This document shows, piece by piece, positions 30,187-58,943 of a stretch of 59,051 bases of DNA. The stretch spans positions 1 to 59,051 of the forward strand of contig DASRYU010000050.1 of assembly GCA_035687045.1 (NCBI GenBank). The letters run 5' to 3'. The position numbers were made by a program, and so were the translations under genes. Positions within the stretch are counted from its first letter, which is position 1. Every line of letters begins with the position of its first letter. The notes beneath the pieces are model-generated. The model worked only from the letters and a program-made list of their open reading frames with translations. It made no database searches and was not told where the DNA came from. This DNA is from Thermoplasmatota archaeon (GTDB lineage: Archaea > Thermoplasmatota > SW-10-69-26 > JACQPN01 > JAJPHT01).

Positions 30187-30209
30187 GTCGCGGCCGATGC
30201 CGGGTTCGC

Positions 30210-30218
30210 GAGAAAGCC
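30210..30218 (-). promoter_or_regulatory. TATA-like box GGCTTTCTC, 23 nt upstream of the ugd-like ATG
   Basis: The minus strand reads GGCTTTCTC-N23-ATG(30186). Confidence 0.45.
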
Positions 30219-30247
30219 TTTGCGGAGCCGGCGTGGGCGACCGGAGC

Positions 30248-30255
30248 GTTTATGA
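30248..30255 (+). promoter_or_regulatory. TATA-like box GTTTATGA, 24 nt upstream of GTG 30280 (galU)
   Basis: GTTTATGA-N24-GTG. The GTG gives the N-terminus VKAVIPAAGLGTR, typical for GalU. Confidence 0.45.
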
Positions 30256-30279
30256 TTGCGGGGCGGGCGTCGTTCCGTT

Positions 30280-31143
30280 GTGAAAGCGGTCATCCCCGCG
30301 GCGGGTCTCGGGACGCGGATGCTTCCCGCGACGAAGAGCAGCCCCAAGGAGATGCTCCCCGTCGTGGACAAGCCCGCCATCCAGTACGTCGTGGAGGAGT
30401 GCGTCGCCAGCGGCATCCGCGACATCCTGATCATCACGGGGCGCGGCAAGCGGGCCATCGAGGACCATTTCGATCGCTCGGTCGAGCTCGAATCGCTCCT
30501 GGAGCAGAAGGGGGACACGGAGCGTCTCGCCGAGATGCGCCACATCGCGGAGATGGCGAACCTCCATTACGTCCGGCAGCGCGAGATCCGAGGCCTCGGC
30601 CACGCCGTGCTGTGCGCGCGCCCGTTCGTCGGCGACGAGCCGTTCGCGCTCCTCCTTGGCGACGACCTCGTCCGCTCCGACACGCCTTGCACGCGCCAGC
30701 TGATGGACGTGCACGCGCGCCGCGGCGGCTCCGTCCTCGCCGTGGAGCGGCTCCCGCGCGCCCGCCTCTCCGCCTATGGCGTGGTCGCCCCGGGAAGAAC
30801 GGTCGAGGAGCGCCTGATGGAGGTGCACGACCTGGTCGAGAAGCCGACGCCCGAGGAGGCGCCTTCCGAGTACGGCATCATGGGCCGCTACGTCCTCTCT
30901 CCCGCGATCTTCGACGCGCTCGAAGCGACGGGTCCAGGGTTCAACGGCGAGATCCAGCTCACGGACGCGCTGAGGAAGGTCCTGCGCGGCGAGCCGGTCT
31001 GGGGCTATCACTTCGACGGGCAACGGCTCGACGTCGGGACGAGGCTCGAATGGCTCAAGACGAACATCGACCTCGCGCTCGAGCGGGCGGACCTCGCCGC
31101 TCCCCTCAAGGCGTACCTCGAGGACAGGCTCGCGCGGAAGTAG
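30280..31143 (+). CDS. galU: UTP--glucose-1-phosphate uridylyltransferase (287 aa from GTG 30280; ORF opens at TTG 30256)
   Basis: KAVIPAAGLGTRMLPATKSSPKEMLPVVDKPAIQYVVEE, and VEKP in the middle of the protein. Confidence 0.85.
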   Translation: MKAVIPAAGLGTRMLPATKSSPKEMLPVVDKPAIQYVVEECVASGIRDILIITGRGKRAIEDHFDRSVELESLLEQKGDTERLAEMRHIAEMANLHYVRQREIRGLGHAVLCARPFVGDEPFALLLGDDLVRSDTPCTRQLMDVHARRGGSVLAVERLPRARLSAYGVVAPGRTVEERLMEVHDLVEKPTPEEAPSEYGIMGRYVLSPAIFDALEATGPGFNGEIQLTDALRKVLRGEPVWGYHFDGQRLDVGTRLEWLKTNIDLALERADLAAPLKAYLEDRLARK

Positions 31144-31144
31144 C

Positions 31145-32968
31145 TCACTCGACGGTGACGCTCTTCGCGAGGTTGCGCGGCTTGTCGATGTTGCAGCCGC
31201 GCGCGCGGGCCGCGTAGTACGCGAGGAGGTAGAGCGCGACCGACGCCGGCACAGGGAAGAAGAGCGGGTCGCACGAGGGGACGCGGAACACCTTCTCCGC
31301 GTGCTTGTCGGCCTTCGCATCGCCCGCACTGGCGATGGCGAGGACCTTCGCGCCGCGCGCGCGGACCTCGCCGAGGTTCGACGTCATCACGCCGTAGGTG
31401 GGGTCGCGCTCGGGGAGGAGCGCCACCACGGGGAAGCCTCCTTCGAGGAGCGCGAGCGGCCCGTGCTTTAGCTCGCCCGCGGCGTACCCTTCGGCGTGGA
31501 CGTAGCTGATCTCCTTGAGCTTGAGCGCGCCTTCCATCGCGAGGCCGTAGTTCGCCTGCCGGCCGAGGTAGAACGCGTTGTCGAAGGCGCTGAAGAACGT
31601 CCCGCCCAGCGTGCGCAGCTCCTCCGCCTTCTCGAGCGTCTGCTGCGCGAGGCGCGGGAGCCCGCGCAGGTCGGCGAGGTAGCGCTTCGTCTCGTCGGGC
31701 GTGATGCGGCCGCGCTGCTTCGCGAGGTGCAGGCCGAGGAGATAGAAGGAGCCCAGCATGTTGACGAACGCCTTCGTGGAGGCGACGCCGATCTCGGGCC
31801 CGGCGCGCAGATAGAAGACGCCGTCCGCCTCGCGCGCGAGCGAGGAGCCGACGACGTTCACGAGCGCGAGCGTCTTGCAACCCAGCTGCTGGGCGCGCCG
31901 GAGCGCCTCGAGCGTGTCCGCCGTCTCGCCGCTCTGGGAGACGAGGATGGCGAGCGTGTTCTCCGGGTGGATGGAGGGCGCGTAGCGGAACTCGCTCGCG
32001 AGGTGCACCTCCACCGGCACGCCTGCGAGCTGCTCGACGATGCTCTTGCCGACCATGCCCGCGTAGTGCGACGTGCCGCACGCGAGGACCATCACGCGCT
32101 GCGTCGAGCGGAGGTGGTCCTCAGTGAGCCGCCCCTCCACGTCGAACCTGGAGCCCACGGACGCGAGGCGGCCGCGGAACAGCTCGTGGAGCGCGTCCGG
32201 GATCTCGTGGATCTCCTTGAGCATGAAGTGCTCGAAGCCGCCCTTCTCGGCGGCCTCGGGCGTCCAATCCAGCTCGCGGACGATGGGGATCTTCGCCTCG
32301 CCGTTGCGGTCGTAGAGGTGGATTCGGTCGTGCTCCAGCTCCACGACGTCGCCGTCGTCGAGGAAGACGACCTTGTTCGTGTGCGCGAGGATGGCCGTCG
32401 CGTCGGAGGCGAGGATGGCGCCCTTGTCGGACATGCCGACGAGGAGCGGGCTCTTGTGGCGCGCCGCGACGATGCGGTCGGGCGAGTCCGCCGAGACGAC
32501 GACGATCGCGTAGCTCCCCTCGAGGTGCTGGATCGCGCTGCGGACCGCCTTCAGGAGGTCCCCCTCGAGGTGCTGCTCGACGAGGTGCGCGATGACCTCA
32601 GTGTCCGTCTCGCTCGTGAACGCGTGGCCGTTCGCGACAAGCTTCTCGCGCAGCTCGAGGAAGTTCTCGATGATGCCGTTGTGCGCCAGCGCGAGGCGCC
32701 CCGAGCAGTCCTTGTGCGGGTGCGCGTTGAGCTCCGTTGGCGCGCCGTGCGTCGCCCAGCGCGTGTGGCCCACGCCGGTGTGGCCCTGCGGCGCGGGGCG
32801 CGCGGCGAGGTGCGCGACCGGCCCGGCGGCGCGCTCGATGGTGAGGCCGGAGTCGGTGAGGACGGCGAGGCCGGCGCTGTCGTAGCCGCGATACTCGAGG
32901 CGACGGAGGCCGTCGAGGATGGTCTTGGCGGCGTCCGGGGTCCCCACTACGCCGATGATGCCGCACAT
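31145..32968 (-). CDS. glmS: Glutamine--fructose-6-phosphate aminotransferase (isomerizing), 607 aa
   Basis: - MCGIIG Ntn-glutaminase N-terminus.
- Two SIS domains.
- C-terminal ...NLAKSVTVE.
- GGAGGT lies 8 nt before the ATG.
- TATA-like CTTATAAG at ~33014-33021. Confidence 0.95.
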   Translation of the reverse strand: MCGIIGVVGTPDAAKTILDGLRRLEYRGYDSAGLAVLTDSGLTIERAAGPVAHLAARPAPQGHTGVGHTRWATHGAPTELNAHPHKDCSGRLALAHNGIIENFLELREKLVANGHAFTSETDTEVIAHLVEQHLEGDLLKAVRSAIQHLEGSYAIVVVSADSPDRIVAARHKSPLLVGMSDKGAILASDATAILAHTNKVVFLDDGDVVELEHDRIHLYDRNGEAKIPIVRELDWTPEAAEKGGFEHFMLKEIHEIPDALHELFRGRLASVGSRFDVEGRLTEDHLRSTQRVMVLACGTSHYAGMVGKSIVEQLAGVPVEVHLASEFRYAPSIHPENTLAILVSQSGETADTLEALRRAQQLGCKTLALVNVVGSSLAREADGVFYLRAGPEIGVASTKAFVNMLGSFYLLGLHLAKQRGRITPDETKRYLADLRGLPRLAQQTLEKAEELRTLGGTFFSAFDNAFYLGRQANYGLAMEGALKLKEISYVHAEGYAAGELKHGPLALLEGGFPVVALLPERDPTYGVMTSNLGEVRARGAKVLAIASAGDAKADKHAEKVFRVPSCDPLFFPVPASVALYLLAYYAARARGCNIDKPRNLAKSVTVE

Positions 32969-33014
32969 GCCCTGGACCTCCGCCTTCTCGGCGAGCGCGC
33001 GAGCGCTTGCTTGC

Positions 33015-34169
33015 TTATAAGACGTGCGAACGGTCAGGCACGTTCGCGTGGAGGGTCCTGCCGGGCGCCACCTGCACGTGATTTCCTATGATTGACCCGG
33101 GCAGGAGCGTCGACGCTCCGCCCACTCTGCAGTCCTCGCCGATGATGGCGCCGAAGTCCTCCAGGTGGTGCCAGCCGTCGGTGAGCTGCACCTCGCATCG
33201 GCCAGAGAGCGCGGTGAAGCGAGCTCCGATGCGCGTGCCCGCACCGACGATGGTGTTGCGGAGGATGCTGCCCGCTGCGATCTGCACGTCGTCGTACACC
33301 ACGCAGTTCTCGAGAACGCAGTTGGGGCCGATCACCACGTTGTGCCCGATGCACGTGCCGGCGGCGAGTGTGGTCCCGGGGCCGACGATGCACTCGTCCC
33401 CCACGCGCACGGGGGCCTCCGCGTGCACGCCGGGAGCGTCCAGCGGGGGAGGAGGGTGCGCGCGCAGGAGGTCGGCGTGCACGCGCAGGAGGTCCCACGG
33501 GTAGACGGCGTCGGACCAAAGGGATTCGGAGCGGACGACGTGAACGCGCATGCCGCGAGCAAGAGCGCGCTCCAAGACGTCGGGAAGCCCCCCCTCGCCC
33601 GCGCGCGCAAGCTCAGCCGCCTCGTCGTAGAGCTCTGGCGTGAGCACGTAAACACCCGTGCTCACCCACTCGGATCGGGCATGCGCAGGCTTTTCCTCGA
33701 GGGCCAGGAGCCGGTCGCCATCCAAGGTCGCGACACCATAGCGCGTGGGTGTGCGGCTGCGATGGACGACGAGCGCTGGCTCTCGCTTCGGAGCGCTCAG
33801 CGCAGCGGCGATGAGCTCTGCGTCAACGACGTTGTCACCCCCGAGCGCAAGGAATGGCTCCGCGGGCCGGGAAGCGGTGGTGAGCGCACGTGCGGTGCCA
33901 GTGAGCGCGCTTTGGAAGGCGTACGAGATACGTGCGCCGTGCTTCCTGCCGTCACCGAAGTGAGACTGCACGCGCTCGCGTTGGTATCCCACGACGATCG
34001 TGATGTCGCGGACGCCGTTCGCTACGAGAGACTCCACGGCGTACTGGAGGATCGGCTTGTTCGCCGCGCGGATCATCGGCTTCGGCTTGTCCGCGGTGAA
34101 GGGGCGCAGGCGAGACCCTTCGCCGGCCGCGAGGAGGACGGCTTCCACGATCGCGCACCGCATCCGCAC
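33015..34169 (-). CDS. Bifunctional sugar-1-phosphate nucleotidyltransferase / left-handed beta-helix acetyltransferase (archaeal GlmU-like, 384 aa)
   Basis: - N-terminal LLAAGEGSRLRPFTADKPKPM nucleotidyltransferase signature.
- C-terminal hexapeptide repeats (IGHNVVIGPNCVLENCVVYDDVQIAAGSILRNTIVGAGTRIG).
- The start could also be ATG 34163. Confidence 0.75.
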   Translation of the reverse strand: MRMRCAIVEAVLLAAGEGSRLRPFTADKPKPMIRAANKPILQYAVESLVANGVRDITIVVGYQRERVQSHFGDGRKHGARISYAFQSALTGTARALTTASRPAEPFLALGGDNVVDAELIAAALSAPKREPALVVHRSRTPTRYGVATLDGDRLLALEEKPAHARSEWVSTGVYVLTPELYDEAAELARAGEGGLPDVLERALARGMRVHVVRSESLWSDAVYPWDLLRVHADLLRAHPPPPLDAPGVHAEAPVRVGDECIVGPGTTLAAGTCIGHNVVIGPNCVLENCVVYDDVQIAAGSILRNTIVGAGTRIGARFTALSGRCEVQLTDGWHHLEDFGAIIGEDCRVGGASTLLPGSIIGNHVQVAPGRTLHANVPDRSHVL

Positions 34170-34420
34170 ACGCCCGTGAATAGCTATCCGAAGGCGATCT
34201 CGTGCTTCGCACGCCGCGCGCTCCCCGATCAGGGCGCCGTGCGCTGGGCGGCGGCCGCAGCCGAGGGCGGCGCGACGCCGTCCGCTGCCACGCCGCAGCC
34301 CCGTCCGCGGTCGGAAGGTGGCCGAGGCAAATCCTTATGGCCGGCGCCTTTCCTCGCCGCCATGTCGCCCTGCCCCACGACAGGGTCGACCCCGCGGGCG
34401 CCTGCGCGCTCGCGCCGCGG

Positions 34421-35413
34421 ATGGGTCGCATGCGGTATCTTGTCACGGGTTGCGCAGGGTTCATCGCCTCACGCGTCGCGCAGCAGCTTCTGGAGCGGGG
34501 GCACGAGGTCGTCGGTGTCGACGACATGAACGACGCTTACGACCCGCGCCTGAAGGAATGGCGCCTCGAGCAGCTCCGCCGGCATGCGAGCTTCCGCTTC
34601 ATGCGAGCTGACGTCGCTGACATCGGCGCGCTCGCAGCCGCCTTCGCCGACGGCCCCGTCGAAGGCGTATACAACCTCGCCGCGCGTGCAGGAGTGCGCC
34701 AGAGCATAGCGGACCCGTGGACCTACCTGCGCACGAACGCCCAGGGGACGCTCAACGTTCTCGAACTCGCGCGGAAGCACGATGTGAACAGGATCGTCAC
34801 CGCGAGCACGTCGAGCCTCTATGGCAAGCACAACCCTCGCCCGTTCCGCGAGAGTGCGGATACGGACCGCCCGCTCTCGCCGTACGCTTCGTCCAAGAAG
34901 GCGGCAGAGAGCTTCTGCGCAAGCTACGCGCACATCTACGGCCTGTCGACCCCCGTCTGCCGCTATTTCACGGTCTACGGCCCCGCCGGCCGGCCCGACA
35001 TGAGCATGTTCCGATTCATCCGCTGGATCAGCGAAGGTGAGCCCATCCTCCTTTACGGCGACGGCTCCCAGGAGCGCGATTTCACCTACGTTGACGACAT
35101 CGCGCGGGGCACGCAACTCGCACTCGAAAAGACGCGCGGCTTCGACGTCTACAATCTTGGTGGCGACCGGCCGGTCCTACTCCGTGACATGATCGGCCTC
35201 ATCGAGAAGCTCGTCGGCAAGCCTGCCAAGCTCGACCAGCGCCCTGCGCACGTCGCCGACGTTCCCGCCACGTGGGCGGATATCACGAGGGCGCGCACAA
35301 AGCTCGGGTGGGAGCCGACGACGAGTTTCGAGGACGGCGTCCGAGCGACGGTCAAGTGGTACCAGATGAACCATGCTCTCGCGTCGAACCTGTCCCTGGG
35401 GGTAGACGCATGA
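34421..35413 (+). CDS. NAD-dependent nucleotide-sugar epimerase (UDP-GlcA / UDP-GlcNAcA 4-epimerase-like, WbpP/TviC-like), ~330 aa
   Basis: - YLVTGCAGFIASRV Rossmann motif.
- YxxxK (YASSKKAAE).
- ATG 34421 or 34430; the ORF track start at 34202 is unlikely.
- ATGA overlap with the next gene. Confidence 0.8.
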   Translation: MGRMRYLVTGCAGFIASRVAQQLLERGHEVVGVDDMNDAYDPRLKEWRLEQLRRHASFRFMRADVADIGALAAAFADGPVEGVYNLAARAGVRQSIADPWTYLRTNAQGTLNVLELARKHDVNRIVTASTSSLYGKHNPRPFRESADTDRPLSPYASSKKAAESFCASYAHIYGLSTPVCRYFTVYGPAGRPDMSMFRFIRWISEGEPILLYGDGSQERDFTYVDDIARGTQLALEKTRGFDVYNLGGDRPVLLRDMIGLIEKLVGKPAKLDQRPAHVADVPATWADITRARTKLGWEPTTSFEDGVRATVKWYQMNHALASNLSLGVDA

Positions 35414-36714
35414 GCCCGCCAGGAACCGTCGCCGTGATTGGCTTGGGCTACGTGGGCCTCCCGCTCGCTGTCGCGTTCGCGCGACACCTTCCGACGATCG
35501 GTTTCGACGTGAACCGCGTACGCGCGGAGGAGCTCACGCGGGGCCTCGACCGCAACGGCGAGGTGACGGAGCACGACCTCCGCCAGCCGATGCTCTCCTT
35601 CACGAGCGACCCGAACGAGCTGCGCCGCGCGGACGTGCTGATCGTCGCCGTGCCGACGCCTGTGGACCGGATGAAGAGCCCCGACCTCTCGTACCTGGAG
35701 TCGGCGAGCCGGATCGCGGGCGCAGCGATCGCGGCGCGTGCGAAGGAGCGACCGGAGGCGCAGCCCGCGATCCTCGTGTACGAATCCACCGTCTTCCCCG
35801 GCTGCACCGAGGAGGTGTGCGCGCCGATCGTGGAGGCGGCGTCGGGCCTGTCCTCCGGCAGGGACTTCAAGCTCGGCTATTCGCCTGAGCGCATCAACCC
35901 TGGGGACGCGGAGCACACGCTCGAACGCGTGGTGAAGGTCGTGGCGGCGCAGGACGCGCCGACGCAGGCGACCCTCACCGCGCTCTACGGCCTCGTCGTG
36001 AAGGCTGGGATTCACGAAGCGCCGGACATCCGCACCGCCGAAGCCGCGAAGGTGATCGAGAACACGCAGCGCGACCTCAATATCGCGCTGATGAACGAGC
36101 TGAGCATGCTCTTCCACAAGCTCGGGATCGACACGCAGGCTGTGCTGGCGGCCGCGCGGACGAAGTGGAACTTCCTGCCGTTCCAGCCCGGTCTTGTCGG
36201 CGGTCACTGCATTCCGGAGGACCCATACTATCTCACGTACAAGGCAGCGCTCGTCGGGCACCACCCTGACGTCATTCTCGCCGGTCGGCGGATCAACGAC
36301 GGCATGGGGATTTACACAGCCCATGAGGCGCTCCGTCTCCTCATTGCTACCGGCGCTCCCGCACGTGGCGCGCGTGTCCTCGTCCTCGGCGTAACGTTCA
36401 AAGAAGACGTGAAGGACACGCGGAACTCGCGCGTCGTTGACATCGTGCGCGAGCTGGAGCGTTTCGGCATGGCCGTGGGCGCACGTGACGAAGTGGCCGG
36501 GGTGGAGGGCGTGCGTGCTCTCGGACTGCAAGACGCTCCGACGGAAGGCCCGCCGGTGGATGTGCTCGTCCTCGCGGTGCCGCATCGCGCCTACAAGGCG
36601 GAAGGGCTTCGCCTCCTGGCCTTGGTCCGAGAGGGCGGCGTCGTCGTGGACGTGAAGGGGGCGCTGGATCGTCGCGCCGTCGAAGCGTCGGGCCGCTCCT
36701 ACTGGCGGCTCTAA
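35410..36714 (+). CDS. UDP-N-acetyl-hexosamine 6-dehydrogenase-like nucleotide-sugar dehydrogenase (WbpO/TviB/WecC-like, 434 aa)
   Basis: VAVIGLGYVGLPLAVAF and the catalytic Cys context GLVGGHCIPEDPYYL. Confidence 0.8.
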   Translation: MSPPGTVAVIGLGYVGLPLAVAFARHLPTIGFDVNRVRAEELTRGLDRNGEVTEHDLRQPMLSFTSDPNELRRADVLIVAVPTPVDRMKSPDLSYLESASRIAGAAIAARAKERPEAQPAILVYESTVFPGCTEEVCAPIVEAASGLSSGRDFKLGYSPERINPGDAEHTLERVVKVVAAQDAPTQATLTALYGLVVKAGIHEAPDIRTAEAAKVIENTQRDLNIALMNELSMLFHKLGIDTQAVLAAARTKWNFLPFQPGLVGGHCIPEDPYYLTYKAALVGHHPDVILAGRRINDGMGIYTAHEALRLLIATGAPARGARVLVLGVTFKEDVKDTRNSRVVDIVRELERFGMAVGARDEVAGVEGVRALGLQDAPTEGPPVDVLVLAVPHRAYKAEGLRLLALVREGGVVVDVKGALDRRAVEASGRSYWRL

Positions 36715-36787: not shown

Positions 36788-37951
36788 TCACATCCGTACG
36801 GCGCGCTCCAAAACAGAACGCGCCGCAACGCCGGCGCGCACGGCGTCCTCCTCACTCATGGTAGGATGGACAAGGAAAGCGAGCGAGGACTCGTGGAGGA
36901 CGCGCGCGACGGGTTGTGCGTTCATCGACCCGAAGCGCTCGAAGGCCTTCTCGCGGTAGATCTCGCCGCAGCTCCCCGAAGCGCATGGCACCTGCTCCGC
37001 CTCCATGCTGGATAGCAAGCGCCCGCGGTCCCATCCGTCAGCGAGGTGCGCAGGATCAAGATAGGCGTAGAGGCGATAGTACGCGTTGCGTGCGCTGGGA
37101 CTAGGAATAGGGACGCGCAGGCCTGGCACTCCCTCGAGCGCCTTGGTGACGGCACGTGCGTTGCGTTGCCGCGCCGCGACCCACGCGGGGAGCTTGCGGA
37201 GCTGGATGCGCCCGATGGCGGCCTGCATCTCCGTCATCCTGTAGTTCGAGCCGAACGACTCGTGCAGCCACCGGAAGCCGGGGGGGTGCTGCCGTGCCAC
37301 TGCGGCCAGCGACTTCCCGTGGTCTTTGAACGACCACATGCGCTCAAAGAGGGCGTCGTCGTCGGTCACCACAAGCCCGCCCTCGCCGCCCGTCGTGATG
37401 ATCTTGTCCTGGCAGAAGGAGAATGCGGCGACGTGGCCGAAGCTGCCGACGGGCTTTCCATCGATCTCCGCCCCGTGCGCTTGCGCGCAGTCCTCAACGA
37501 CCGGGATATCGGTCTCGCGCGAGAGCTCCATGATCGGCGCCATCTCGCACGGCCAGCCGCCGAGATGAACGACGATCATGGCGCGAGTAGCAGGCGTCAG
37601 CGCCGCGCGCAGCGTGTCCGCGGTGACGTTGCCGCTCTCGGCGTCGACGTCGGCGACGACCGGCCGCGCTCCGACGAGCACGGCGGCCGCGGCCGTGGCG
37701 ATGAACGTGCGGCTCGGCACGACAACGTCGTCGCCAGGGCCGACCCCCAGCGCCCGGAGCGCAAGCTCCAGCGCAACGGTGCCGTTCGCGAGGGAGATCG
37801 CGTGGCGCCGCCCGAGGTGGGCCGCGTACTCGCGCTCGAACTCGCGGCACTCGTTGCCCGTCCAGAAGTTGACCTTGCCGGACGACAGGACGCGCTGGAC
37901 CGCCGCAATCTCGTCCTCCTCGAAGACGGGCCAACGAGGGTAAGGGAGCAC
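36788..37951 (-). CDS. DegT/DnrJ/EryC1-family PLP-dependent sugar aminotransferase (387 aa from GTG 37951). Last gene of the operon.
   Basis: - Family pattern ...EFEREYAAHLGRRHAISLANGTVALELALRALGVGPGDDVVVPSRTFIATA...
- Lys-containing SFCQDKIITTGEGG motif.
- The ORF track start (38416) lies inside the upstream gene. Confidence 0.85.
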   Translation of the reverse strand: MLPYPRWPVFEEDEIAAVQRVLSSGKVNFWTGNECREFEREYAAHLGRRHAISLANGTVALELALRALGVGPGDDVVVPSRTFIATAAAAVLVGARPVVADVDAESGNVTADTLRAALTPATRAMIVVHLGGWPCEMAPIMELSRETDIPVVEDCAQAHGAEIDGKPVGSFGHVAAFSFCQDKIITTGGEGGLVVTDDDALFERMWSFKDHGKSLAAVARQHPPGFRWLHESFGSNYRMTEMQAAIGRIQLRKLPAWVAARQRNARAVTKALEGVPGLRVPIPSPSARNAYYRLYAYLDPAHLADGWDRGRLLSSMEAEQVPCASGSCGEIYREKAFERFGSMNAQPVARVLHESSLAFLVHPTMSEEDAVRAGVAARSVLERAVRM

Positions 37952-37973
37952 GGTGCAGGGCACGCGCGGAGGG

Positions 37974-39218
37974 CTACAAGTGCGTTTTCTCGGCGTCCTG
38001 CCGCGGCGCCAGCGCCACAAGGACCCCCGCGAGAACCCAGAACGCCCGGAAGTTCTCGATGTTGGTGAACAGACCCTGGACGAGGGAGGCGATGAAATAG
38101 CAGGAGAGCGCGACCGCGGCGCCCCATTCTCGTTGCGCGAAGGCGCGTAGCTGGAACCCCGCGGAGAGGATGAGCCACGCGCCGGCCGCAAGTCCGAGCA
38201 CGCCGAGCTCTGCGGCCATCGAGAGGTACGTGTTGTGGACGACGGTGGGCGTCCCGACGATGGGCTCCAGGTGAAGAGCGGCTTGACCGATACCTGCGCC
38301 GAGGAGCGGGTATTCAAGAAAGGCCCGCAGCGCCGCCTTCCAGAGCACCATGCGGTGGCCGACGTCCTTCCGCTCCGGCTCCTCACCCTCACCCGGTGTG
38401 ACCTCCTCGACTGCACGCGAGATCCGAGATGCGGGATCCGGAGCGGCCACCACGTACGCTGCCAGCACCAGCAGCGCGACCGACGCCCCCGGAGCGAGCG
38501 TCTTCAGCGCCTTCGTTCGTCGAAACACAAGCGGCAGCGCCGCCACGGCCGCGACAACGACGCCCAAGAGCATCCCTCGCGATGCCGTGGCGACGAGGCC
38601 TGCGAGCAGGATCCCTGCGCATAGTCCCTTCCAGGCGCTCCGGCGCCGCTGGGGAGTGCCATCCATCGCCTCGGTCGCGAGCAGCGCCGCGCAAGCCGCC
38701 GCAAGGAAGTTCGCGAAGAGGTTCGGGTTCGTGAATGTCGTCACAGGACGCGCGTCGCCCGCGAGCGAACGCACGATGGCCCATCCGGCGAGCGCGATCC
38801 CGCCGAACGTGAGGCCTCGGAGCAGCGCGCGCGTCGCGCTGCGATCTCCCCGCAGGAGCGCCCACGTCGCCAGGGCCCAGGCGACCGCGCCGACCAGCTT
38901 GATGAGGTCGACGACGCCGCGGCCGACGTCCAGCACATAGCCCGACGCCACGCCGACCATGAGCGAGAGCGCGGCGGCTCCCAGCAAGGCGAGGACCGGA
39001 CCCACGAGAACCGGTGGCGACGCGCGGAGCTGCCGAGCGATCGAGGCGCTCATGACGACAATGGCGGCAGCGACGAACAAGTCGCCGGCGCTCAAGGTCA
39101 GTCCCCAGCCCCCCGGGGCGACAGCCGTGAAGTGGAGCGGAAGGAGCAGCGCGAGCGCGAGGGCGGCAGGGACGCGCAGAGCGGCAATGTGCGAAGCAAC
39201 GCGCTGGCGCGGCGTCAT
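37974..39218 (-). CDS. Wzy_C-domain (O-antigen ligase/polymerase/PglL-type) polytopic membrane protein (414 aa)
   Basis: About 10 TM segments, with the signature VVHNTYLSMAAELGVLGLAAGAWLI (HN...E.G..G) in a late loop/TM region. Confidence 0.65.
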   Translation of the reverse strand: MTPRQRVASHIAALRVPAALALALLLPLHFTAVAPGGWGLTLSAGDLFVAAAIVVMSASIARQLRASPPVLVGPVLALLGAAALSLMVGVASGYVLDVGRGVVDLIKLVGAVAWALATWALLRGDRSATRALLRGLTFGGIALAGWAIVRSLAGDARPVTTFTNPNLFANFLAAACAALLATEAMDGTPQRRRSAWKGLCAGILLAGLVATASRGMLLGVVVAAVAALPLVFRRTKALKTLAPGASVALLVLAAYVVAAPDPASRISRAVEEVTPGEGEEPERKDVGHRMVLWKAALRAFLEYPLLGAGIGQAALHLEPIVGTPTVVHNTYLSMAAELGVLGLAAGAWLILSAGFQLRAFAQREWGAAVALSCYFIASLVQGLFTNIENFRAFWVLAGVLVALAPRQDAEKTHL

Positions 39219-39835
39219 GGGAGCGGCTCGCGCTCCCGCGCGCCGGTGAACTCAGGCATCGTCGCGTGCCCCTCGGCGCTCACGCCCTTCCGCGAGAAAA
39301 CCAGGAGGGCCGTCCGCCAAAGGATCTTCAGGTCAAGCGCGAAGGAGCGATGGTCCACGTACCACACATCCAGGCGGAAACGGTCCTCCCATCCCAACGC
39401 ATTCCGACCGTGCACGACAGCCCAGCCGGTGAGGCCCGGCCGCACCTCGAGACGCCGCGACTGGAAAGCCGTGTAACGGGGGATGTAGTGGACGTAGAGC
39501 GGTCGCGGTCCCACAAGGCTCATGTCGCCGCGTAGGACGTTCCACAGTTCAGGAAGCTCGTCGAGCGTCGTCCCGCGCAGGAACCGCCCGAAGCGCGTGA
39601 GCCGCGCCTCGTCGGAACGCAGAGCGCCGTCGGGTCCACGCGCGTCCGTCATCGTGCGGAACTTCAGCAGCTCGAAAGGACGTCCGCGAAGCCCCGCGCG
39701 CGTCTGGCGGAACAGCACGGGTGAACCGAGGCGCCAGCGGACGAGGAGCGCGACGACGAGCATGACGGGAAGCGCCAGCACGAGCAGCGCAAGCGACGTG
39801 ACGATGTCGAACAACCGCTTTGCACCGTCGCCCAT
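39215..39835 (-). CDS. Small PglC/WbaP-C-type phosphoglycosyl transferase (Bac_transf family, 206 aa)
   Basis: KRLFDIVTSLALLVLALPVMLVVALLVRWRLGSPVLFRQTRAGLRGRPFELLKFRTM...DELPELWNVLRGDMSLVGPRP. Start at ATG 39835, inside the longer ORF. Confidence 0.85.
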   Translation of the reverse strand: MGDGAKRLFDIVTSLALLVLALPVMLVVALLVRWRLGSPVLFRQTRAGLRGRPFELLKFRTMTDARGPDGALRSDEARLTRFGRFLRGTTLDELPELWNVLRGDMSLVGPRPLYVHYIPRYTAFQSRRLEVRPGLTGWAVVHGRNALGWEDRFRLDVWYVDHRSFALDLKILWRTALLVFSRKGVSAEGHATMPEFTGAREREPLP

Positions 39836-39864: not shown

Positions 39865-40995
39865 TCAACGTGTCGTAGCGGCGAGGAGCTCGCCATAAAG
39901 TTCCAGCGTCCGGTCGACGACGGACGTGAGGCTGAACTCGTTCTCGACGAGCGCGCGAGCCGCGTCCGAGAACCCGCGCCGCGATGTCGGGTCGCTTGCG
40001 AGCCGCAGGAAGGCCTCCGCGAGCGCGTGCGCGTCGCGCGCGGGCACGAGAAGCCCGGTCGACCCGTGCCGCACGACCTCGCGGCATCCGGCCACGTCCG
40101 TCGCAACAAGCGTCCGCCCCGTCGCTGCGCCCTCCAGGAGGATGCGTGGGAGGCCTTCGCGGTAAGATGGTAGGCAGACGACGTGCGCGCTCGCCAGCAC
40201 TTCCGGCATGTCGTCGCGCTGTCCCCACCACTCGATGTCGCCGTCCGACGTCCAGCGATGAAGCTCGTCCTCCGCGATTGCCGCAGGATTGCCGGGGTCG
40301 AGACCGCCGACGAGGATGAAGCGTGCCTCCGGGAGCTTCGCGCGGACGAGGCGAGCCGCCTCCACGAACTCGCCGATGCCCTTGTCTCGGAGCATCCGCG
40401 CGCCCAGTACGACCGTGAACGGTCCCTCCGGTTCGGGGCATCGGGGGAAGCGCGCGAGGTCAATCCCCGAGCCGCGGATGAGCCGCGTTCGGTCGGCCTT
40501 GACAAGACCCATACGAAGAAACTCTTCGCGGTCATCCGAGTTCTGGAAGACCGTGATCGCGTTGCGATGACGGAACGCGGCGCGGTATCCGACGCGCGCG
40601 ATGGCGCGCGCCGTGCGGGCTCTGCGGGAGTCGTTGATGAACGCGTACCCCAAGCCCGTGATCGTCGACACGCTAGCGGGGACGCTCGCCGCGCGAGCCG
40701 CCAGGCCTCCGTAGAGGCAGGGTTTGATCGTGAAATGGTGGACGAGATCGGGGCGGACCGCCCTGTAGATACGCAGAACCTCCGCGACGGTGGCCGCTTC
40801 GCGCAGCGGATCGGTGCTTTTGCGATCGAGCGGCAGGGGGTGGAACGCGAACTCGCGGATGATCTCGTCCGCTCGTGGTCCGGGAGGCGCGACCACGTGC
40901 ACGTCATACTTGGCTGCCCGGCACGCGCGCGCCAGCGCCATCCTTTGCGGGAAGAACGCAGCGGCCTCATTGACAAAGAGGAGGACGCGGCTCAC
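39865..40995 (-). CDS. GT4-family (GT-B, Glycos_transf_1) glycosyltransferase (376 aa)
   Basis: C-terminal EGLPRILLEGAATGRTLVATDVAGCREVV (ExxxxxxE-type motif). GTG start, in a GTGA overlap with the upstream gene. Confidence 0.75.
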   Translation of the reverse strand: MSRVLLFVNEAAAFFPQRMALARACRAAKYDVHVVAPPGPRADEIIREFAFHPLPLDRKSTDPLREAATVAEVLRIYRAVRPDLVHHFTIKPCLYGGLAARAASVPASVSTITGLGYAFINDSRRARTARAIARVGYRAAFRHRNAITVFQNSDDREEFLRMGLVKADRTRLIRGSGIDLARFPRCPEPEGPFTVVLGARMLRDKGIGEFVEAARLVRAKLPEARFILVGGLDPGNPAAIAEDELHRWTSDGDIEWWGQRDDMPEVLASAHVVCLPSYREGLPRILLEGAATGRTLVATDVAGCREVVRHGSTGLLVPARDAHALAEAFLRLASDPTSRRGFSDAARALVENEFSLTSVVDRTLELYGELLAATTR

Positions 40996-42920
40996 TTCGC
41001 CCGCTCCTGGTGCTCAAGCCACAGCTGGAACATGAGCACGTTCCAGAGGTGATACTGCCAATCGCGCTTCCCCGAGAGGTGCTCGCGCCAGAGACGCGCA
41101 ACCGGCTCCGGACGCAGGTAGCCTTCACGTGCAAGTCGTCCCTCGTCGAGGAGCGCGCTCGCCCAGTCTCGGAGCGGGCCGCGGAGCCACTCGCCGATCG
41201 GAATGCCAAAGCCGGTCTTCGGCCTGTCCACGAGGTGGGCCGGCACGTGCCGGTGAAGGAGGCGACGGAGGATCCGCTTCCCTTGGCCGCCTTTCACGCG
41301 CGCCTCCAGCGGCAACGACCACGCCACCTCGAAGACGCCAGGGTCCAAGAACGGGACGCGGACCTCCAGCGCGTGCGCCATGCTTGCACGGTCCACCTTG
41401 ACGAGGATGTCGTCCGGCAGGTACGTCAGCGTGTCGCGCAGCATCATGCGCTCCGCTAGAGCCAGCTCCTGCTCTTGCGGGAGAAGAGCGTCTGTTTCCG
41501 GGCGCTCGCTCAAGCCGACCACGGCCGTCCACGCCTCTGGCCAACGACGCGCGAAGGTGGCGTAGAACTCGTCCGCGTCCCGGCTGCGGAGCGCGAGGGC
41601 GAGCTTCTGGATCTTTTCGCCGGTGAAGCGGGGTCTACGCCTCTCGGGAAGGAGGCGAGCCAGCGCGTCCCACGTCCCCGGGCGCATCGACAGGAGGCCG
41701 GCGGCCCCTACTTGTCGCAGGGGTCTCGGCAGGCGCGCGGCGGCCTCCCAGAGCGTCGGGCCGTGCACGTGACGGTTGTACCCTCCAAAGAGCTCGTCGC
41801 CGCCGTCGCCAGAGAGGGCGACCGTCACGTGCCGACGCGCCAGCCGAGCCACGAGATAGGTCGGGATCTGCGACGCGTCCGCGAAGGGCTCGTCGTAGAT
41901 GCGCGGAAGCGCGGGAAGGACGGCGAGCGCGTCCTCCGGGGTGACGCGGAACTCCGTGTGCTGGGTGCCAAGGTGCTCCGCCACCGCCCGAGCCGCCTGC
42001 GACTCGTCGTAGTCGGAGTCGTCCCAGCCGATCGTGAAGGTGCGCACGGCAGCCGCGCTCTCGCTCTGCATGATGGACACGATCAAGGACGAGTCGATCC
42101 CGCCAGAGAGGAACGCGCCCAACGGCACGTCCGACTCCATGCGCAGCCGCACTGCGACGCGCAACGCTCGCTCCAGCCGCTCGGCAAGCGCGTCCTCGTC
42201 CATCGCGCGGGAAGCCTGACGCGCCGCGGCCGCCACGGCCTCGGCCGACCAGAAGCGCGTCGGCTCCGAGGGCGCTTCCCCTGGTCTCACGGACAGCCAT
42301 GTCGCCGGGGGAAGCTTGCGGACCACCGGATGAATGGTGCGTGGGGCCGGGATGCAGTCTCGCTCGAGGAGGAGCGCCAGCGACGCCCGGTCGACGCTGC
42401 GGGACAGCAGGCCATGCGCGCGCAGCGCCTTGAGCTCGGAGCCGAAGAGGAACGTGCCATTCTGCACAGCGTAGTAGAGCGGCTTCTCGCCGAATCGGTC
42501 GCGCGCCAGGTAGGCGACCCCTTCCTGCTCGTCCCAGATGGCGAGCGCGAACATCCCGTTGAGCAACGGAAGCGTCTCGACGACCCCGAACCGCTCCACT
42601 GCGGCCAGCAGGACCTCGGTATCGCTGCCGCCGCGGAAGCTGATGCCTTGCGCCTCGAGCTGTGTCCGGAGCTCGCGGAAGTTGTAGATCTCACCGTTGA
42701 ACGAGACCGTGAATCGGCCGCTCGCCGACGCCATCGGCTGGTGGCCGGCGGGGGAGAGATCGATGATTGCGAGCCTCCGGTGGCCGAGCGCCACGCCGGA
42801 GCTTGCCCATGTCCCCGCGGAATCTGGACCGCGGTGGGCAATCGCCAGCGCCATGGCTTCGGCCGCCTTTGGGGATGCGGCGGCAGTGTCGTGGGAGAGG
42901 ATCCCGCAGATGCCGCACAC
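40992..42920 (-). CDS. asnB: Asparagine synthase (glutamine-hydrolysing)-family amidotransferase, copy 2 (642 aa from GTG 42920)
   Basis: - (V/M)CGICGI N-terminal nucleophile Cys2.
- PP-loop SGGIDSS.
- Located in a glycan operon, so sugar amidation is the likely role. Confidence 0.85.
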   Translation of the reverse strand: MCGICGILSHDTAAASPKAAEAMALAIAHRGPDSAGTWASSGVALGHRRLAIIDLSPAGHQPMASASGRFTVSFNGEIYNFRELRTQLEAQGISFRGGSDTEVLLAAVERFGVVETLPLLNGMFALAIWDEQEGVAYLARDRFGEKPLYYAVQNGTFLFGSELKALRAHGLLSRSVDRASLALLLERDCIPAPRTIHPVVRKLPPATWLSVRPGEAPSEPTRFWSAEAVAAAARQASRAMDEDALAERLERALRVAVRLRMESDVPLGAFLSGGIDSSLIVSIMQSESAAAVRTFTIGWDDSDYDESQAARAVAEHLGTQHTEFRVTPEDALAVLPALPRIYDEPFADASQIPTYLVARLARRHVTVALSGDGGDELFGGYNRHVHGPTLWEAAARLPRPLRQVGAAGLLSMRPGTWDALARLLPERRRPRFTGEKIQKLALALRSRDADEFYATFARRWPEAWTAVVGLSERPETDALLPQEQELALAERMMLRDTLTYLPDDILVKVDRASMAHALEVRVPFLDPGVFEVAWSLPLEARVKGGQGKRILRRLLHRHVPAHLVDRPKTGFGIPIGEWLRGPLRDWASALLDEGRLAREGYLRPEPVARLWREHLSGKRDWQYHLWNVLMFQLWLEHQERAK

Positions 42921-42921
42921 G

Positions 42922-45036
42922 TTACCGTGCACCTCCGATGGGGCTCTGCCGGAGCTGACGCTCCAGCGTCTCGCGCTGGGAGGTCCGCACGCGTGAGGGC
43001 AGCAGGCCCCACGCGAGGCGAGCGAGCAGGACCGCCCAACTCCGCGCTCCACCGCCCAACTCCTGGATGGCACGCGCTTGCACTTGGGCGCTCCCCCACA
43101 GGTAGCGCAGGCGGCGCTTCGCCTCGAACGACTGGCCTTCGTGGATGCGCTTCGCCTGGAGGGGCACATTCGCGATACCGATGCGATAGCGCGCCGCGGC
43201 AAGACGCACCCACAGGTCGTAGTCGAACTGTGAGCGGCGCTTGACGGAATAACCGCCGACGCTGAGCACGTCCTCCCGACGCATCAGTACCGCGCTGTGG
43301 CACACCGGGTTGTAGTTCGCGAGAGCGTCGGTGGCGTCCTCGACGCGGACAACGCCCTTGACCTCCTCCCAACGCGGCTCCTCGTCGCCCCGCACGATGA
43401 TCGCGTCAGTCCCGATGACGGAGAAGTCGGGGCGCTCCGCCATCAGCCGGGACAGGACCTCGAGCCGGCGGGGGTGCGCGGGGTCGTCCGCGTCGATGTT
43501 CGCGACGAGCGGTCCGCGCGCGCGCGACAAGGCCAGGTTCAGGGCGGCGCCGCGACCGATGGGCCCGGAGCGCACCAGCACGACGCGGTCGTCGTCCTTC
43601 GCGAGCGACGCGACGAAGTCTGGCGTGCCATCGATCGAGCCGTCATCCACGATGACCATCTCCCAGCGGGTGTGGGTCTGCTGCTGGATGCTGCGGATGA
43701 CGCTTGACAAAGTGCGCCGCGCGTTCCTCGTCGTGCAGATGACGCTCACGAGCGGGCGCTCGGGGAGAGGCGCGGAGTCCGATGCGGCGCGCACGGGCGA
43801 CGGAAGCGCCCGCGGCCCCTGGATCGCGAGCGGGAGGAGGAGCATCGTCCAGAACGCGGGGTGGCGGAGGATGAAATGGAACTGCGCGAACGCGACGAGA
43901 GCGAGGGCCATAAGCCCCATCGCGAGCGAGCCGCCGCGCCATGCCTCGCGCGCGGCCCATATGAAGAATGCGACGAGGAGCAATCCTCCGACAAGCCCCG
44001 CGTTCGTCGCCCAGTCGATGACCGCGTTATGCGCCTCATATCCTTGAAGCGGCCCGTTCAGCCCTGAGTAAGCGCCTGGCCCATGCCCGACGAGGTAGGA
44101 GGAGAGGACCGCGTCCGCACCGTTATGCCAGAGCTCGAGGCGTATGGAGACTTGGCGATCGACCGCGTTGAGGTCGGCGAGGACGCGGGGGGCGAGCAAG
44201 AGGGCGGCGACGATGCCGGCCACGATCGCAACGCCTGCGATCGCGTTCGCTGCGCGTCTCGGGAGGCTGCGCGCGGGGGCTTTGCGCCCGAGACGAAGGA
44301 CAAGCACGATGCCGCCCACCGCCGCGCTCAGACTCCACGAGACGAGAAGCGCTTCGCTTGCGACGCCGATCCCGACGACGACCGCTGCGGCGCCGGCGAC
44401 GGACCACCCCAGCTGGCGCCATCCTCCCTCCCGGAAGAGGAGCAGCGCAAGGTACGGAATGGGCAGGAGCGCGAGCGCGACTTGGTTCGGGTTCTGGGAG
44501 AGCCCCATGAATCGCACGCCCGTGCCTGGGCCGAAGCCGACGAGTCCCTGGCTGCGTTGCAGCGCGAAAAGAATCGCGAGAGGCACCACCGTCGCGATGA
44601 GGAAGGCTTGAGCGGCGATGCGGGACCTGTCGCGGAGGTCGGGCTGCGTCATGAACAGGCTCGTCGCTCCGGCGGCGACGACGAGGCCGAGCAGGGTGCG
44701 CAGCCCGCTCCGGTCCCACGTTCCTGAGAGGAGGCCTTGCGCCCATCCGATCCCCAGGAGGAGGAACGCGAGCGCCCAAAAGCCCATCACGACGATGGCC
44801 GGCGTGCGGACGCTTAGGCCATGCCTCGTCCACGCTTCCCTCAGACGGTAGGCGATCCACGCTCCCATGATGATCTCGCCGGGGCCTGCGGCCCATGGGT
44901 CGAGCCGCAGGGCCGTGAAGGTGGTGAGGGCGAGGCCGACGCCGAACACGGCGGACGAAAGGTGGCCGGTCCTCAACCTGCCGCCTCCGTGACGAAGAAC
45001 ACTCGCATCCACAGCTCGAGGTTCACGATGCGCCAC
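42922..45036 (-). CDS. Fusion protein: N-terminal Wzy_C-like polytopic membrane domain plus C-terminal GT2 glycosyltransferase (up to 704 aa)
   Basis: - N-terminal ~400 aa has 9 or more hydrophobic segments and EAHNAVIDWATNAGLVGGLL.
- C-terminal part has VSVICTTRNARRTLSSVIRSIQQQTHTRWEMVIVDDGSIDGT and a DxD motif (NIDADD).
- The first 64 nt overlap asnB copy 1, so the real start may be GTG 44949. Confidence 0.65.
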   Translation of the reverse strand: MAHREPRAVDASVLRHGGGRLRTGHLSSAVFGVGLALTTFTALRLDPWAAGPGEIIMGAWIAYRLREAWTRHGLSVRTPAIVVMGFWALAFLLLGIGWAQGLLSGTWDRSGLRTLLGLVVAAGATSLFMTQPDLRDRSRIAAQAFLIATVVPLAILFALQRSQGLVGFGPGTGVRFMGLSQNPNQVALALLPIPYLALLLFREGGWRQLGWSVAGAAAVVVGIGVASEALLVSWSLSAAVGGIVLVLRLGRKAPARSLPRRAANAIAGVAIVAGIVAALLLAPRVLADLNAVDRQVSIRLELWHNGADAVLSSYLVGHGPGAYSGLNGPLQGYEAHNAVIDWATNAGLVGGLLLVAFFIWAAREAWRGGSLAMGLMALALVAFAQFHFILRHPAFWTMLLLPLAIQGPRALPSPVRAASDSAPLPERPLVSVICTTRNARRTLSSVIRSIQQQTHTRWEMVIVDDGSIDGTPDFVASLAKDDDRVVLVRSGPIGRGAALNLALSRARGPLVANIDADDPAHPRRLEVLSRLMAERPDFSVIGTDAIIVRGDEEPRWEEVKGVVRVEDATDALANYNPVCHSAVLMRREDVLSVGGYSVKRRSQFDYDLWVRLAAARYRIGIANVPLQAKRIHEGQSFEAKRRLRYLWGSAQVQARAIQELGGGARSWAVLLARLAWGLLPSRVRTSQRETLERQLRQSPIGGAR

Positions 45037-46982
45037 ACTTCCGTCGACGCTTCCTTGTCGCCCTTCGCGGCCAGGACCTCGTCGAGCAGCGCCGCCACCC
45101 TCGCCGGGTCCACGTAGGGGTACGACAGGGTGCGCCCGTCGGTGAAGAGGGCGCGGATGTGGTCAGCGTTGGCGCGCAGCCACGCGACCTCGGGTGTCAC
45201 GAACCCCTTCTTGTCGCGCCGCCATTGGATCTCCGGCGGGAGGAGACCCTCCATCGCCTGCCGGAGGACGAGCTTCGTCCACCCGTCGGAGATGCGGAGG
45301 TCCGCCGGGAGAGAGAGGCCCACCTCGACGAGCCGGTAATCGAGGAACGGCGTGCGCGCCTCGACCGAGAACGCCATGGAGCTGCGGTCTTCGTAGCGAA
45401 GGAGCGCAGGGAGGCTGTAGCGCAGCGTGTCCGCCTCGAGGCGCGCCGGAAGATCCCGCATCAGGCGCGCCTGCTCCCGCGCAAAACTCTCCCGCCGCGC
45501 GCGGTGGGCACGCGCGAATTCGGGCCGCATCAGCCGCAACACCGCGCCTTCGGGCGCGAGCCCCGGCGCGACTCGGCGCATGGCCGCGCGGGAGGCGCGC
45601 CGCAGCGGGCCTGGCAGGAGCGCGTACGCCGCGCGAGCCAAGACGCGCGGGGGGCCGGAGTGCGAGACAGCGTCGGGTACCGCGCGGGCGGCGCGCGCCG
45701 CGCTCCTGAGCCGCCCGCGCGCGAGGAGCGTCGCGACAAGCACGCCGTGATAGCCGGGATACCCGCCGAGGACCTCGTCGCTGCCTTGCCCGTCGAGAGT
45801 GACGGTGACGCCGGACTCGCGAGCCAATCGCATGACGCACCATTGCGTGTACTGGCTCGTGGATTGGAAGGGCTCGTCCATGTGCCAGATCACGCGCGGG
45901 AGGTCTTCCCAGAACCGCTCGTGCGTCGGCAGCGTCTCCTTGTTGTCCGCGCCCGTAGAGGCGATGACCTTCTGCACGTGCTGGCGCTCGTCGAAGCGTG
46001 CGTCATCAAAGCCCGCCGTGAAGGTGCGCTGATGCTCGCCGGCGACGGAGCGGTCAAGCTTCAGCTCGTCGAACATCAGGCGGTTCGCCACGACGACGAT
46101 GGAAGACGAGTCAAGCCCGCCACTCAGGCAGGTGCCGACAGGCACGTCGGAGCGCAGACGGATTCGCACGGCGTCCTCGAATGTGGCGCGAAAAAGTGAG
46201 ACGAGGCGAAGCTTCTCTTCGGGCGTGGACGCGAGGGCACCTCCGGCGCGCGCTTCGTACCAACGCCAGCGCTGGAGACGCCCGTCCGCGTGCAGGCGGA
46301 GCGCGTGCGAGCCCGGCAGCTGCAGGATGCCTTCAAAGAAGGTGCGCTCGGTGTGGTCGACGAGACGCAGCGCGAGGTAGTCGTGCACGGCCGCGTCGTC
46401 GGGCCTGCGCGGCACTCCCGGATGCTCGATGATGACCTTGATCTCCGACCCGAACACGAAGAGGCCGTTCGCGTGGTGGTAATAAAACGGCTTCACGCCG
46501 AAGCGGTCGCGGGCGCAGAAGAGCGACCCGTCGCGCGAGTCGTAGAGCGCGAAGGCGAACATGCCGTTGAAGCGCGAGAGGCAATCGACGCCCCATTCAC
46601 GGTAGCTTGCGAGGATCACCTCGGTGTCCGTGCCGGTGCGGAAGGAGTGCCCACGCTTCTCCAACTCCGCGCGGAGCTCGATGAAGTTGTACACCTCGCC
46701 GTTGTACGTGATGGCGAACTCGCCCGCGGCGTCCCACATCGGCATGTGGCCAGCCGGCGAGAGGTCAACGATGGCGAGTCTGCGGTTGCCCAGCGCAACG
46801 TCGTGCTCGATGGGCGGCGCGGCGTCGCGGGCGTCCCATCGAGCGCCGTCGGCTACACGGAGGAGAAGTTGGCCCTCGTCGTTCGGGCCGCGGTGCCGCA
46901 TGACGTCGGTCATCCGCCGGATGACGGCGACGTCAGCAGGCGCGAGCCGGCCGAACACGCGGTAGCCTGCGATGCCGCACAT
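44973..46982 (-). CDS. asnB: Asparagine synthase (glutamine-hydrolysing)-family amidotransferase, copy 1 (669 aa)
   Basis: MCGIAG N-terminus and PP-loop SGGLDSS. Clearly divergent from copy 2. Confidence 0.85.
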   Translation of the reverse strand: MCGIAGYRVFGRLAPADVAVIRRMTDVMRHRGPNDEGQLLLRVADGARWDARDAAPPIEHDVALGNRRLAIVDLSPAGHMPMWDAAGEFAITYNGEVYNFIELRAELEKRGHSFRTGTDTEVILASYREWGVDCLSRFNGMFAFALYDSRDGSLFCARDRFGVKPFYYHHANGLFVFGSEIKVIIEHPGVPRRPDDAAVHDYLALRLVDHTERTFFEGILQLPGSHALRLHADGRLQRWRWYEARAGGALASTPEEKLRLVSLFRATFEDAVRIRLRSDVPVGTCLSGGLDSSSIVVVANRLMFDELKLDRSVAGEHQRTFTAGFDDARFDERQHVQKVIASTGADNKETLPTHERFWEDLPRVIWHMDEPFQSTSQYTQWCVMRLARESGVTVTLDGQGSDEVLGGYPGYHGVLVATLLARGRLRSAARAARAVPDAVSHSGPPRVLARAAYALLPGPLRRASRAAMRRVAPGLAPEGAVLRLMRPEFARAHRARRESFAREQARLMRDLPARLEADTLRYSLPALLRYEDRSSMAFSVEARTPFLDYRLVEVGLSLPADLRISDGWTKLVLRQAMEGLLPPEIQWRRDKKGFVTPEVAWLRANADHIRALFTDGRTLSYPYVDPARVAALLDEVLAAKGDKEASTEVWRIVNLELWMRVFFVTEAAG

Positions 46983-48500: not shown

Positions 48501-48502
48501 GT

Positions 48503-52651: not shown

Positions 52652-52661
52652 GTCAATCTCC

Positions 52662-55809: not shown

Positions 55810-55817
55810 GCATCGCC

Positions 55818-58905: not shown

Positions 58906-58943
58906 GGGGCCGCGCCTCGTCGGGGCGCACATCTCGCTGGGCG

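Follow-up and report, generated by a model that had tools for sequence, protein, structure and literature searches.

The DNA stretch analysed in this study (hereafter the window) is the 59,051-nucleotide contig DASRYU010000050.1 of assembly GCA_035687045.1, assigned to a Thermoplasmatota archaeon. We investigated the gene P0001 (37974-39218, minus strand, ATG start), which encodes a membrane protein of 414 amino acids with a Wzy_C domain. The family, fold and chemistry of P0001 are well supported, and we assign the protein with high confidence to the GT-C class B enzymes, acting on a polyprenyl-diphosphate-linked glycan at the outer face of the membrane. The role is assigned with moderate confidence: P0001 is probably an inverting Wzy-type polymerase that would join repeat units on dolichyl-diphosphate glycans. 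An earlier note on this DNA had proposed either a protein O-oligosaccharyltransferase (OTase) or a polymerase in a host without lipid A.

Wzy_C (PF04932) was the only Pfam domain found in P0001. It covers residues 201-344 with an E-value of 2e-20 and 73.5 bits against a cut-off of 31.7 bits, a match that is far above chance at the sequence level, and the domain assignment of the earlier note was thereby borne out by a hidden Markov model (HMM) search. No NCBIfam model matched P0001. The HN...E.G..G signature, which that note had also pointed out, is VVHNTYLSMAAELGVLGLAAG (38181-38243, minus strand; residues 326-346) and includes H328. The length of 414 residues stood as first given and is in line with Wzy and WaaL proteins, whereas the original count of about 10 transmembrane (TM) segments was revised to 12 helices. 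Hydropathy and an AlphaFold model both placed the N- and C-termini in the cytoplasm and a 68-residue loop between TM9 and TM10 on the outside. Neither a TPR nor an added outside domain was found in P0001. The reading frame is intact, and the GC content at third codon positions (GC3) is typical of coding sequence.

A full HMMER search against 1.84 billion representatives identified 2645 relatives of P0001, and the best full-length ones were 27-38% identical. In an alignment of P0001 with 39 of the best full-length relatives (A1), R157, R214, R289 and H328 were invariant, together with several glycines and prolines. R289 (codon 38352-38354, minus strand) was also invariant in alignments A2 and A3, and R214 (38577-38579, minus strand, in the motif TASRG) and R157 (38748-38750, minus strand, in the RP..F.NPN motif of the outside TM5-TM6 loop) were invariant in A3 as well. 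H328, G339 and G342 were invariant or nearly so across the family alignments. The family profile of P0001 matched the Cupriavidus metallidurans ligase WaaL (PDB 7TPG; E 2e-13) and 9RMK, a 610-residue protein named 'Oligosaccharyltransferase' (E 4e-8). P0001 R214, R289 and H328 aligned with R191, R265 and H313 of WaaL, of which the two arginines bind the diphosphate and the histidine is the suggested activator of the acceptor (PMC10920833).

Structural comparison gave the same picture. The alignment-based AlphaFold2 model of P0001 reached a pLDDT of 84.7 and a pTM of 0.84; a single-sequence model (pLDDT 48) was too poor and was discarded. The best solved match in Foldseek was WaaL 7TPG (E 1.8e-8, TM-score 0.58); FtsW and RodA, both SEDS polymerases, ranked after it (TM-score approximately 0.45), so that the model superposes on WaaL with SEDS proteins next, as in GT-C class B. 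The helix count of 12 and the outside loop that follows TM9 are shared by WaaL. P0001 also carries the two arginines and the histidine of CAZy family GT121, a set that is not exclusive to this family, since the polymerase MagA has R290 and H323. Profile-profile comparison and structure prediction, two of the routes proposed in the earlier note, agreed on a WaaL-like fold in which R214, R289 and H328 match the catalytic set.

The Arg-Arg-His set does not identify the role of P0001, because a polymerase has the same residues. MagA, the K1 polymerase (Wzy_K1) of Klebsiella pneumoniae, is a polytopic protein of 408 amino acids compared with 414 in P0001, and the substitutions R290A and H323A each abolish capsule production (PMC3485256). 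Its residues R290, P305, G308, G310, H323, N324, G334 and G337 correspond to R289, P304, G307, G309, H328, N329, G339 and G342 of P0001 (PMC3485256), with R289 matching R290 by both motif and position; each protein carries this conserved set in an outside loop, with little difference in position. At the position of the ligase His, polymerase families of the clan usually carry Asp or Glu (PMC10920833), and the conserved histidine had been tried as a discriminator between ligase and polymerase; it was dropped, since MagA carries the same histidine. PMC12502699 cites a reported occurrence of Wzy_C in 82% of examined Wzy proteins that form beta linkages. As the residues left the matter undecided, gene context was used to judge the role.

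P0001 is coupled to a small PglC-type phosphoglycosyl transferase (PGT; Bac_transf; 39215-39835, minus strand). The overlap of the PGT stop with the P0001 start reads CTCCCATGACGCC (ATGA) at 39218-39215, and the junction, where the TGA of the PGT gene shares bases with the P0001 ATG, is CCATGACG, in agreement with the ATGA coupling given in the earlier note. The Bac_transf match (Pfam, E 2e-62) lies at residues 208-382 of a long upstream open reading frame (ORF), in which translation most likely begins only at position 39835 (ATG) and yields a small PglC-type enzyme of 206 amino acids. Because such a PGT makes a diphosphate-linked donor of the kind that P0001 would use, the pair appears mechanistically coherent. 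From approximately 59.0 to 36.8 kb the identified genes are all on the minus strand and closely packed. One co-directional operon contains Wzx, the PGT, GT4 and GT2 glycosyltransferases, a KpsS-like gene and sugar-precursor genes, so that the gene set of a Wzx/Wzy pathway is present. The operons of Wzy_C-type polymerases such as MagA likewise combine Wzx, a PGT and glycosyltransferases.

The gene context of relatives was analysed at 80 loci that a scan of metagenomes, queried with the closest relatives, had recovered; these loci were annotated with local HMMs, and the results were checked with Pfam. At the closest-relative loci, the Wzy_C gene matched the close-family profile with E-values of 1e-120 to 1e-135 and was 30-38% identical to P0001. 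In 9 of the 12 closest-relative loci whose upstream DNA spans 1.5 kb or more, a Polysacc_synt_3 (Wzx) flippase gene lies immediately upstream of the Wzy_C gene. The gene order in locus L133 is Poly_export, Wzz/GNVR/AAA_31 (Wzc-like), Wzx and Wzy_C, and near Wzx there is a Poly_export gene in L132 and a GNVR gene in L140. A PGT and a GT4 gene occur within 10 kb in six loci, and in two more distant ones (L146 and L148) the PGT directly precedes Wzy_C, in the same order as in the window. Six of seven more distant homologues that were examined one by one are the sole Wzy_C-family gene, and hence the only recognised polymerase candidate, in exopolysaccharide clusters with Wzx and GT4. Three of these six clusters include a Bac_transf PGT and two are of actinomycete origin; actinomycetes have no lipopolysaccharide. 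Between the two roles that the earlier note had offered, this context, with Wzx in the operon and Wzc or Wza near relatives, leans towards the polymerase.

The remaining genes of the operon are also all on the minus strand. Upstream of the PGT follow the GT4 glycosyltransferase (39865-40995), a first AsnB-like amidotransferase (40992-42900, start approximate), P0003 (42922-45036), a second AsnB-like amidotransferase (44973-46982), a Wzx-type flippase (Polysacc_synt_3; 47028-48701, start codon uncertain) and a KpsS/KpsC-like protein (Capsule_synth; 48503-50026; weak match, E 3e-6) that is a candidate ulosonic-acid transferase. A module for a nonulosonic acid of the legionaminic-acid type occupies 49927-59034 and comprises a dehydratase, a CBS-NTP transferase, a PIG-L protein, a 2-epimerase, a GNAT protein, NeuB, an aminotransferase, an oxidoreductase and a CMP-transferase. 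On the other side, 10 nt separate P0001 from the downstream gene of a DegT/DnrJ/EryC1 sugar aminotransferase (36788-37963). The left end of the island (28867-36714) is occupied by the precursor genes, which encode Ugd, a GalU-like protein, GlmS, a GlmU-like protein, an epimerase/dehydratase and a UDP-sugar dehydrogenase.

These components suggest the following pathway. The coupled PglC-like enzyme would transfer a sugar-1-phosphate onto polyprenyl (dolichyl) phosphate, thereby forming a diphosphate-linked primer. The GT4 enzyme, the GT2 part of P0003 and the KpsS-like protein would then lengthen this primer into a unit of approximately four sugars, which would include uronic acids in amidated form and a sugar of the legionaminic-acid type, and Wzx would flip this unit to the outside. 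There, R214 and R289 of P0001 would bind the donor diphosphate, H328 would activate the acceptor hydroxyl, and P0001 would join the units into a polymer with inversion of the anomeric carbon. The product could stay on its carrier, be transferred by the membrane domain of P0003 in the manner of WadA, or pass to AglB.

Several observations weigh against this assignment. The Arg-Arg-His set is common to WaaL and PglL, and no sequence feature separates a polymerase from a ligase. The host genome, at 88.5% completeness, gave no match to a Wzz-type co-polymerase (PF02706), which weakens the polymerase reading without excluding it. Wzz is not strictly defining, as Wzy can polymerise without it. One relative, P0005 (631 amino acids; L126:9043-11896, in a Deferrimicrobiaceae metagenome-assembled genome, MAG), which is the seventh of the more distant homologues mentioned above, comes directly after a pair of genes for type IV pilins (N_methyl, PilA-like) and is near an A24 prepilin peptidase gene. 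Judged by these neighbouring pilin genes, P0005 looks like a TfpO/PilO-type OTase, and P0001 thus has a relative that is pilin-adjacent like TfpO. In a maximum-likelihood tree of 62 relatives, P0001 forms a long basal branch of its clade (support 80/84), with the deep nodes unresolved, and because the relatives are only 30-38% identical, the transfer of function to P0001 is tentative. Finally, P0003 brings a second, remote Wzy_C-like domain into the operon, and the polymerase could be either protein. Relative to MagA-type polymerases, P0001 differs in having this second domain in its operon and in residing in a single-membrane archaeon with dolichol-type carriers and no Wzz/Wzc match in its genome.

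P0003 (42922-45036) combines an N-terminal, polytopic, remotely Wzy_C-like domain with a C-terminal GT2 domain. It had been described as a fused paralogue of P0001, of which the fusion stood; its membrane domain is only a remote relative, with 29% identity to P0001 over 115 amino acids (BLASTP, E 0.004). Hhalign related this domain to the P0001 family with a probability of 97%, and the first conserved arginine is missing from it in that alignment. The Wzy_C score of P0003 was 17 bits by hmmscan, which is under the cut-off, and 35 bits in a six-frame search. A word-index search with the N-terminal domain returned the query itself and no further homologues. WadA of Brucella, a bifunctional glycosyltransferase and O-antigen ligase, similarly joins a cytoplasmic glycosyltransferase and a Wzy_C-like polytopic domain that work at opposite membrane faces (PMC9938171); unlike WadA, P0003 has the membrane domain first, a GT2 rather than a GT25 domain, and no first conserved arginine.

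Comparable arrangements were also observed elsewhere. In a genome of the same class (G016), an ORF of 881 amino acids (L107:8323-10968) carries a Wzy_C domain (E 2.4e-10) and a C-terminal GT4 domain, and is a second archaeal Wzy_C-glycosyltransferase fusion besides P0003. A bacterial contig from a marine metagenome (L136:3212-11188) encodes two Wzy_C proteins (537 and approximately 445 amino acids), GT2, Wzx, GT4 enzymes and a PGT, and provides a bacterial parallel to the pair of Wzy_C-type proteins in the window.

The host genome is a Thermoplasmatota MAG of 3.13 Mb in 275 contigs. It encodes the archaeal ribosomal protein Ribosomal_S3Ae and at least three STT3/AglB homologues above the cut-off, and no LpxC was found in it at its 88.5% completeness. 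The archaeal host without lipid A that had been presumed is thereby confirmed, and a diderm bacterium with lipid A genes is not indicated. Contamination or misbinning of the contig was also considered and was ruled out by three lines of evidence: the left 28 kb fits the tetranucleotide profile of the host genome, the Lhr helicase on the contig is 73-84% identical to those of four genomes of the same genus, and the genes flanking the island are syntenic in both same-genus genomes examined (G001 and G004). The left flank is 84% identical to an archaeal genome of the same genus. GlmS of the window has 70% identity to its counterpart in a soil MAG of a Thermoplasmatota archaeon. The window also carries, at 9635-10450 and 6584-9454 (minus strand), a paired Lhr-like helicase and PdeM/SbcD-related phosphoesterase; the pair is kept at 69-84% identity in the two same-genus genomes and is a useful marker of the chromosomal backbone.

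The island itself, by composition and distribution, appears foreign to this backbone. The 28-59 kb half of the contig has a GC content of 0.686 compared with 0.718 for the genome, and its tetranucleotide distance exceeds the 90th percentile of contigs. In G004 the conserved backbone extends as far as an A24-like gene. Over the following approximately 33 kb, neither the PGT-P0001 pair nor any island gene of the Ugd-to-DegT stretch had a homologue, and only weak GT4 and GT2 matches were seen. A search of 40 related archaeal genomes, four of them of the same genus, yielded no homologue of P0001 at E <= 1e-3, and a scan of the genome contigs with P0001 as query gave no match. Bac_transf was present in 1 of the 40. 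Wzy_C exceeded the Pfam cut-off in 3 of 301 genomes of the phylum, namely the host and two others (completeness was 90% or more in the 300 genomes other than the host); the four archaeal control genomes had no such match. Among the ten closest relatives of P0001 that were looked up, the only named protein came from Armatimonadota; more distant named relatives came from actinomycetes, Deferrimicrobiaceae and Thermoanaerobaculia. The identity of P0001 to any named protein is approximately 30-36%, and a word-index search with P0001 gave six weak matches, all bacterial. Based on the atypical composition and the rarity of Wzy_C in the phylum, the island is likely a bacterial-type module that was acquired horizontally, which is also the simplest reading.

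Some other Thermoplasmata have unrelated Wzy_C genes in glycan clusters (G016 and G017). The cluster of G017, a genome of the same class (L106:6677-15966), encodes an AglH-like Glycos_transf_4 protein, GT4, a Wzy_C protein of 482 amino acids, a sulfotransferase, GT2 and a fused ABC flippase-like transporter; its GT2 and the corresponding domain of P0003 share 45% identity.

A terminal ligase role for P0001, with transfer of the glycan to protein or lipid, is the principal alternative to the polymerase; no specific support for it was found, and we consider it unlikely. The better of its two forms, itself rather improbable, is a protein O-OTase of the PglL, TfpO or WsaB type, which would transfer the flipped glycan en bloc to Ser or Thr while P0003, or nothing, polymerises. 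The fold and Arg-Arg-His set shared with WaaL, the profile match to 9RMK and the position of P0005 directly after two pilin genes all accommodate such an enzyme. PglL, TfpO (PilO) and the WsaB and WsfB proteins share with P0001 the Wzy_C domain, the conserved arginine and the histidine of the HN motif, and use diphosphate-linked donors outside the membrane, as is proposed for P0001. The Wzy_C OTases WsaB and WsfB are known from single-membrane bacteria with S-layers (PMC2943079), and the enzymes of archaeal O-glycosylation remain unidentified (PMC6098224). Two Wzy_C-like proteins in one operon would also fit a polymerase plus a ligase. However, PglL_A (PF15864) and Wzy_C_2 (PF11846) are absent from P0001 even at E <= 10 (Pfam hmmscan), and P0001 is shorter than the characterised or candidate OTases compared (610 residues in 9RMK and 631 in P0005) and has neither an extra domain nor a TPR. 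Moreover, no acceptor or pilin gene adjoins P0001, whose neighbours are the PGT and DegT, and its closest relatives stand in Wzx, Wzc and Wza contexts rather than beside acceptor genes.

A link to pilins through the A24-peptidase-like gene at 28364-28867, approximately 9 kb from P0001, was considered and rejected, since this gene has no Pfam match and is conserved in G004, which lacks the island at that position; it belongs to the backbone. The Ser/Thr-rich acceptors that the earlier note had suggested looking for do exist as candidates, although none is linked to the P0001 locus. A genome-wide scan for Ser/Thr-rich ORFs returned mostly false frames of high-GC DNA and approximately three plausible proteins. 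Two surface-type proteins with poly-Ser or Ser/Thr linkers count in favour of the O-OTase, and both are possible glycosylation acceptors. The first (G000:C13:8218-9225) has a signal peptide, WDWGDG repeats, a long linker and a C-terminal hydrophobic anchor, and the second, a fragment (G000:C51:3-695), has repeated QSWGGY modules, N-x-S/T sequons and a long linker. A hydrophilic apolipoprotein/LEA-like repeat protein in the window (24103-24897, minus strand) ends in a Ser/Gly/Thr tail of approximately 100 residues with a poly-Ser run, and is an unlikely acceptor because it has no obvious signal peptide. In a related scenario that we rate as equally doubtful, P0001 or P0003 would be the first archaeal protein O-OTase, placing a legionaminic-acid-containing glycan from a dolichyl-diphosphate carrier on Ser/Thr-rich linkers of surface proteins, and the other protein would polymerise.

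In the second and still less probable form of a ligase, P0001 would act like WaaL but with a different membrane glycolipid in place of lipid A as the acceptor of the glycan, such as an archaeal lipid that bears sugars, and would so produce a lipoglycan. WaaL is the best solved match of P0001 in both sequence and fold, the two proteins agree in size and topology, and lipoglycans occur in the wall-less Thermoplasma. The classical role of WaaL, ligation to the lipid A-core, is excluded by the archaeal host and the lack of LpxC, and P0001 lies in a glycan-unit operon beside a PGT, unlike WaaL in a core-oligosaccharide locus. For another lipid there is no identifiable acceptor pathway, and the Wzx and Wzc contexts of the relatives are typical of polymerases. 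Furthermore, with Wzy_C above the cut-off in only 3 of the 301 genomes, P0001 cannot belong to an envelope pathway that the lineage conserves. It is very improbable that P0001 is inert baggage of the transfer and that AglB/STT3 of the host moves a single glycan unit to Asn, as the multiple STT3 homologues and the foreign composition of the island might suggest, given the intact frame, the retention of all family-invariant residues, the tight translational coupling within the operon and the typical GC3.

P0001 itself is, on present evidence, an unexceptional representative of a large bacterial enzyme family in an unusual host and not a new mechanism. The archaeal machinery for O-glycosylation is described as unidentified (PMC6098224), which agrees with the statement of the earlier note that its enzymology is essentially uncharacterised. 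Neither an archaeal Wzy-type polymerase nor an archaeal O-OTase was found in the literature searched, which makes a bench test of P0001 worthwhile. On a real archaeal chromosome, the locus presents a complete bacterial-style module for starting a glycan on a diphosphate carrier, flipping it and polymerising or ligating it, and it illustrates the passage of surface-glycan genes between domains in soil. It provides a clonable candidate for how archaea build surface glycans of repeating units, and could address whether a bacterial Wzx/Wzy module runs on dolichol carriers.

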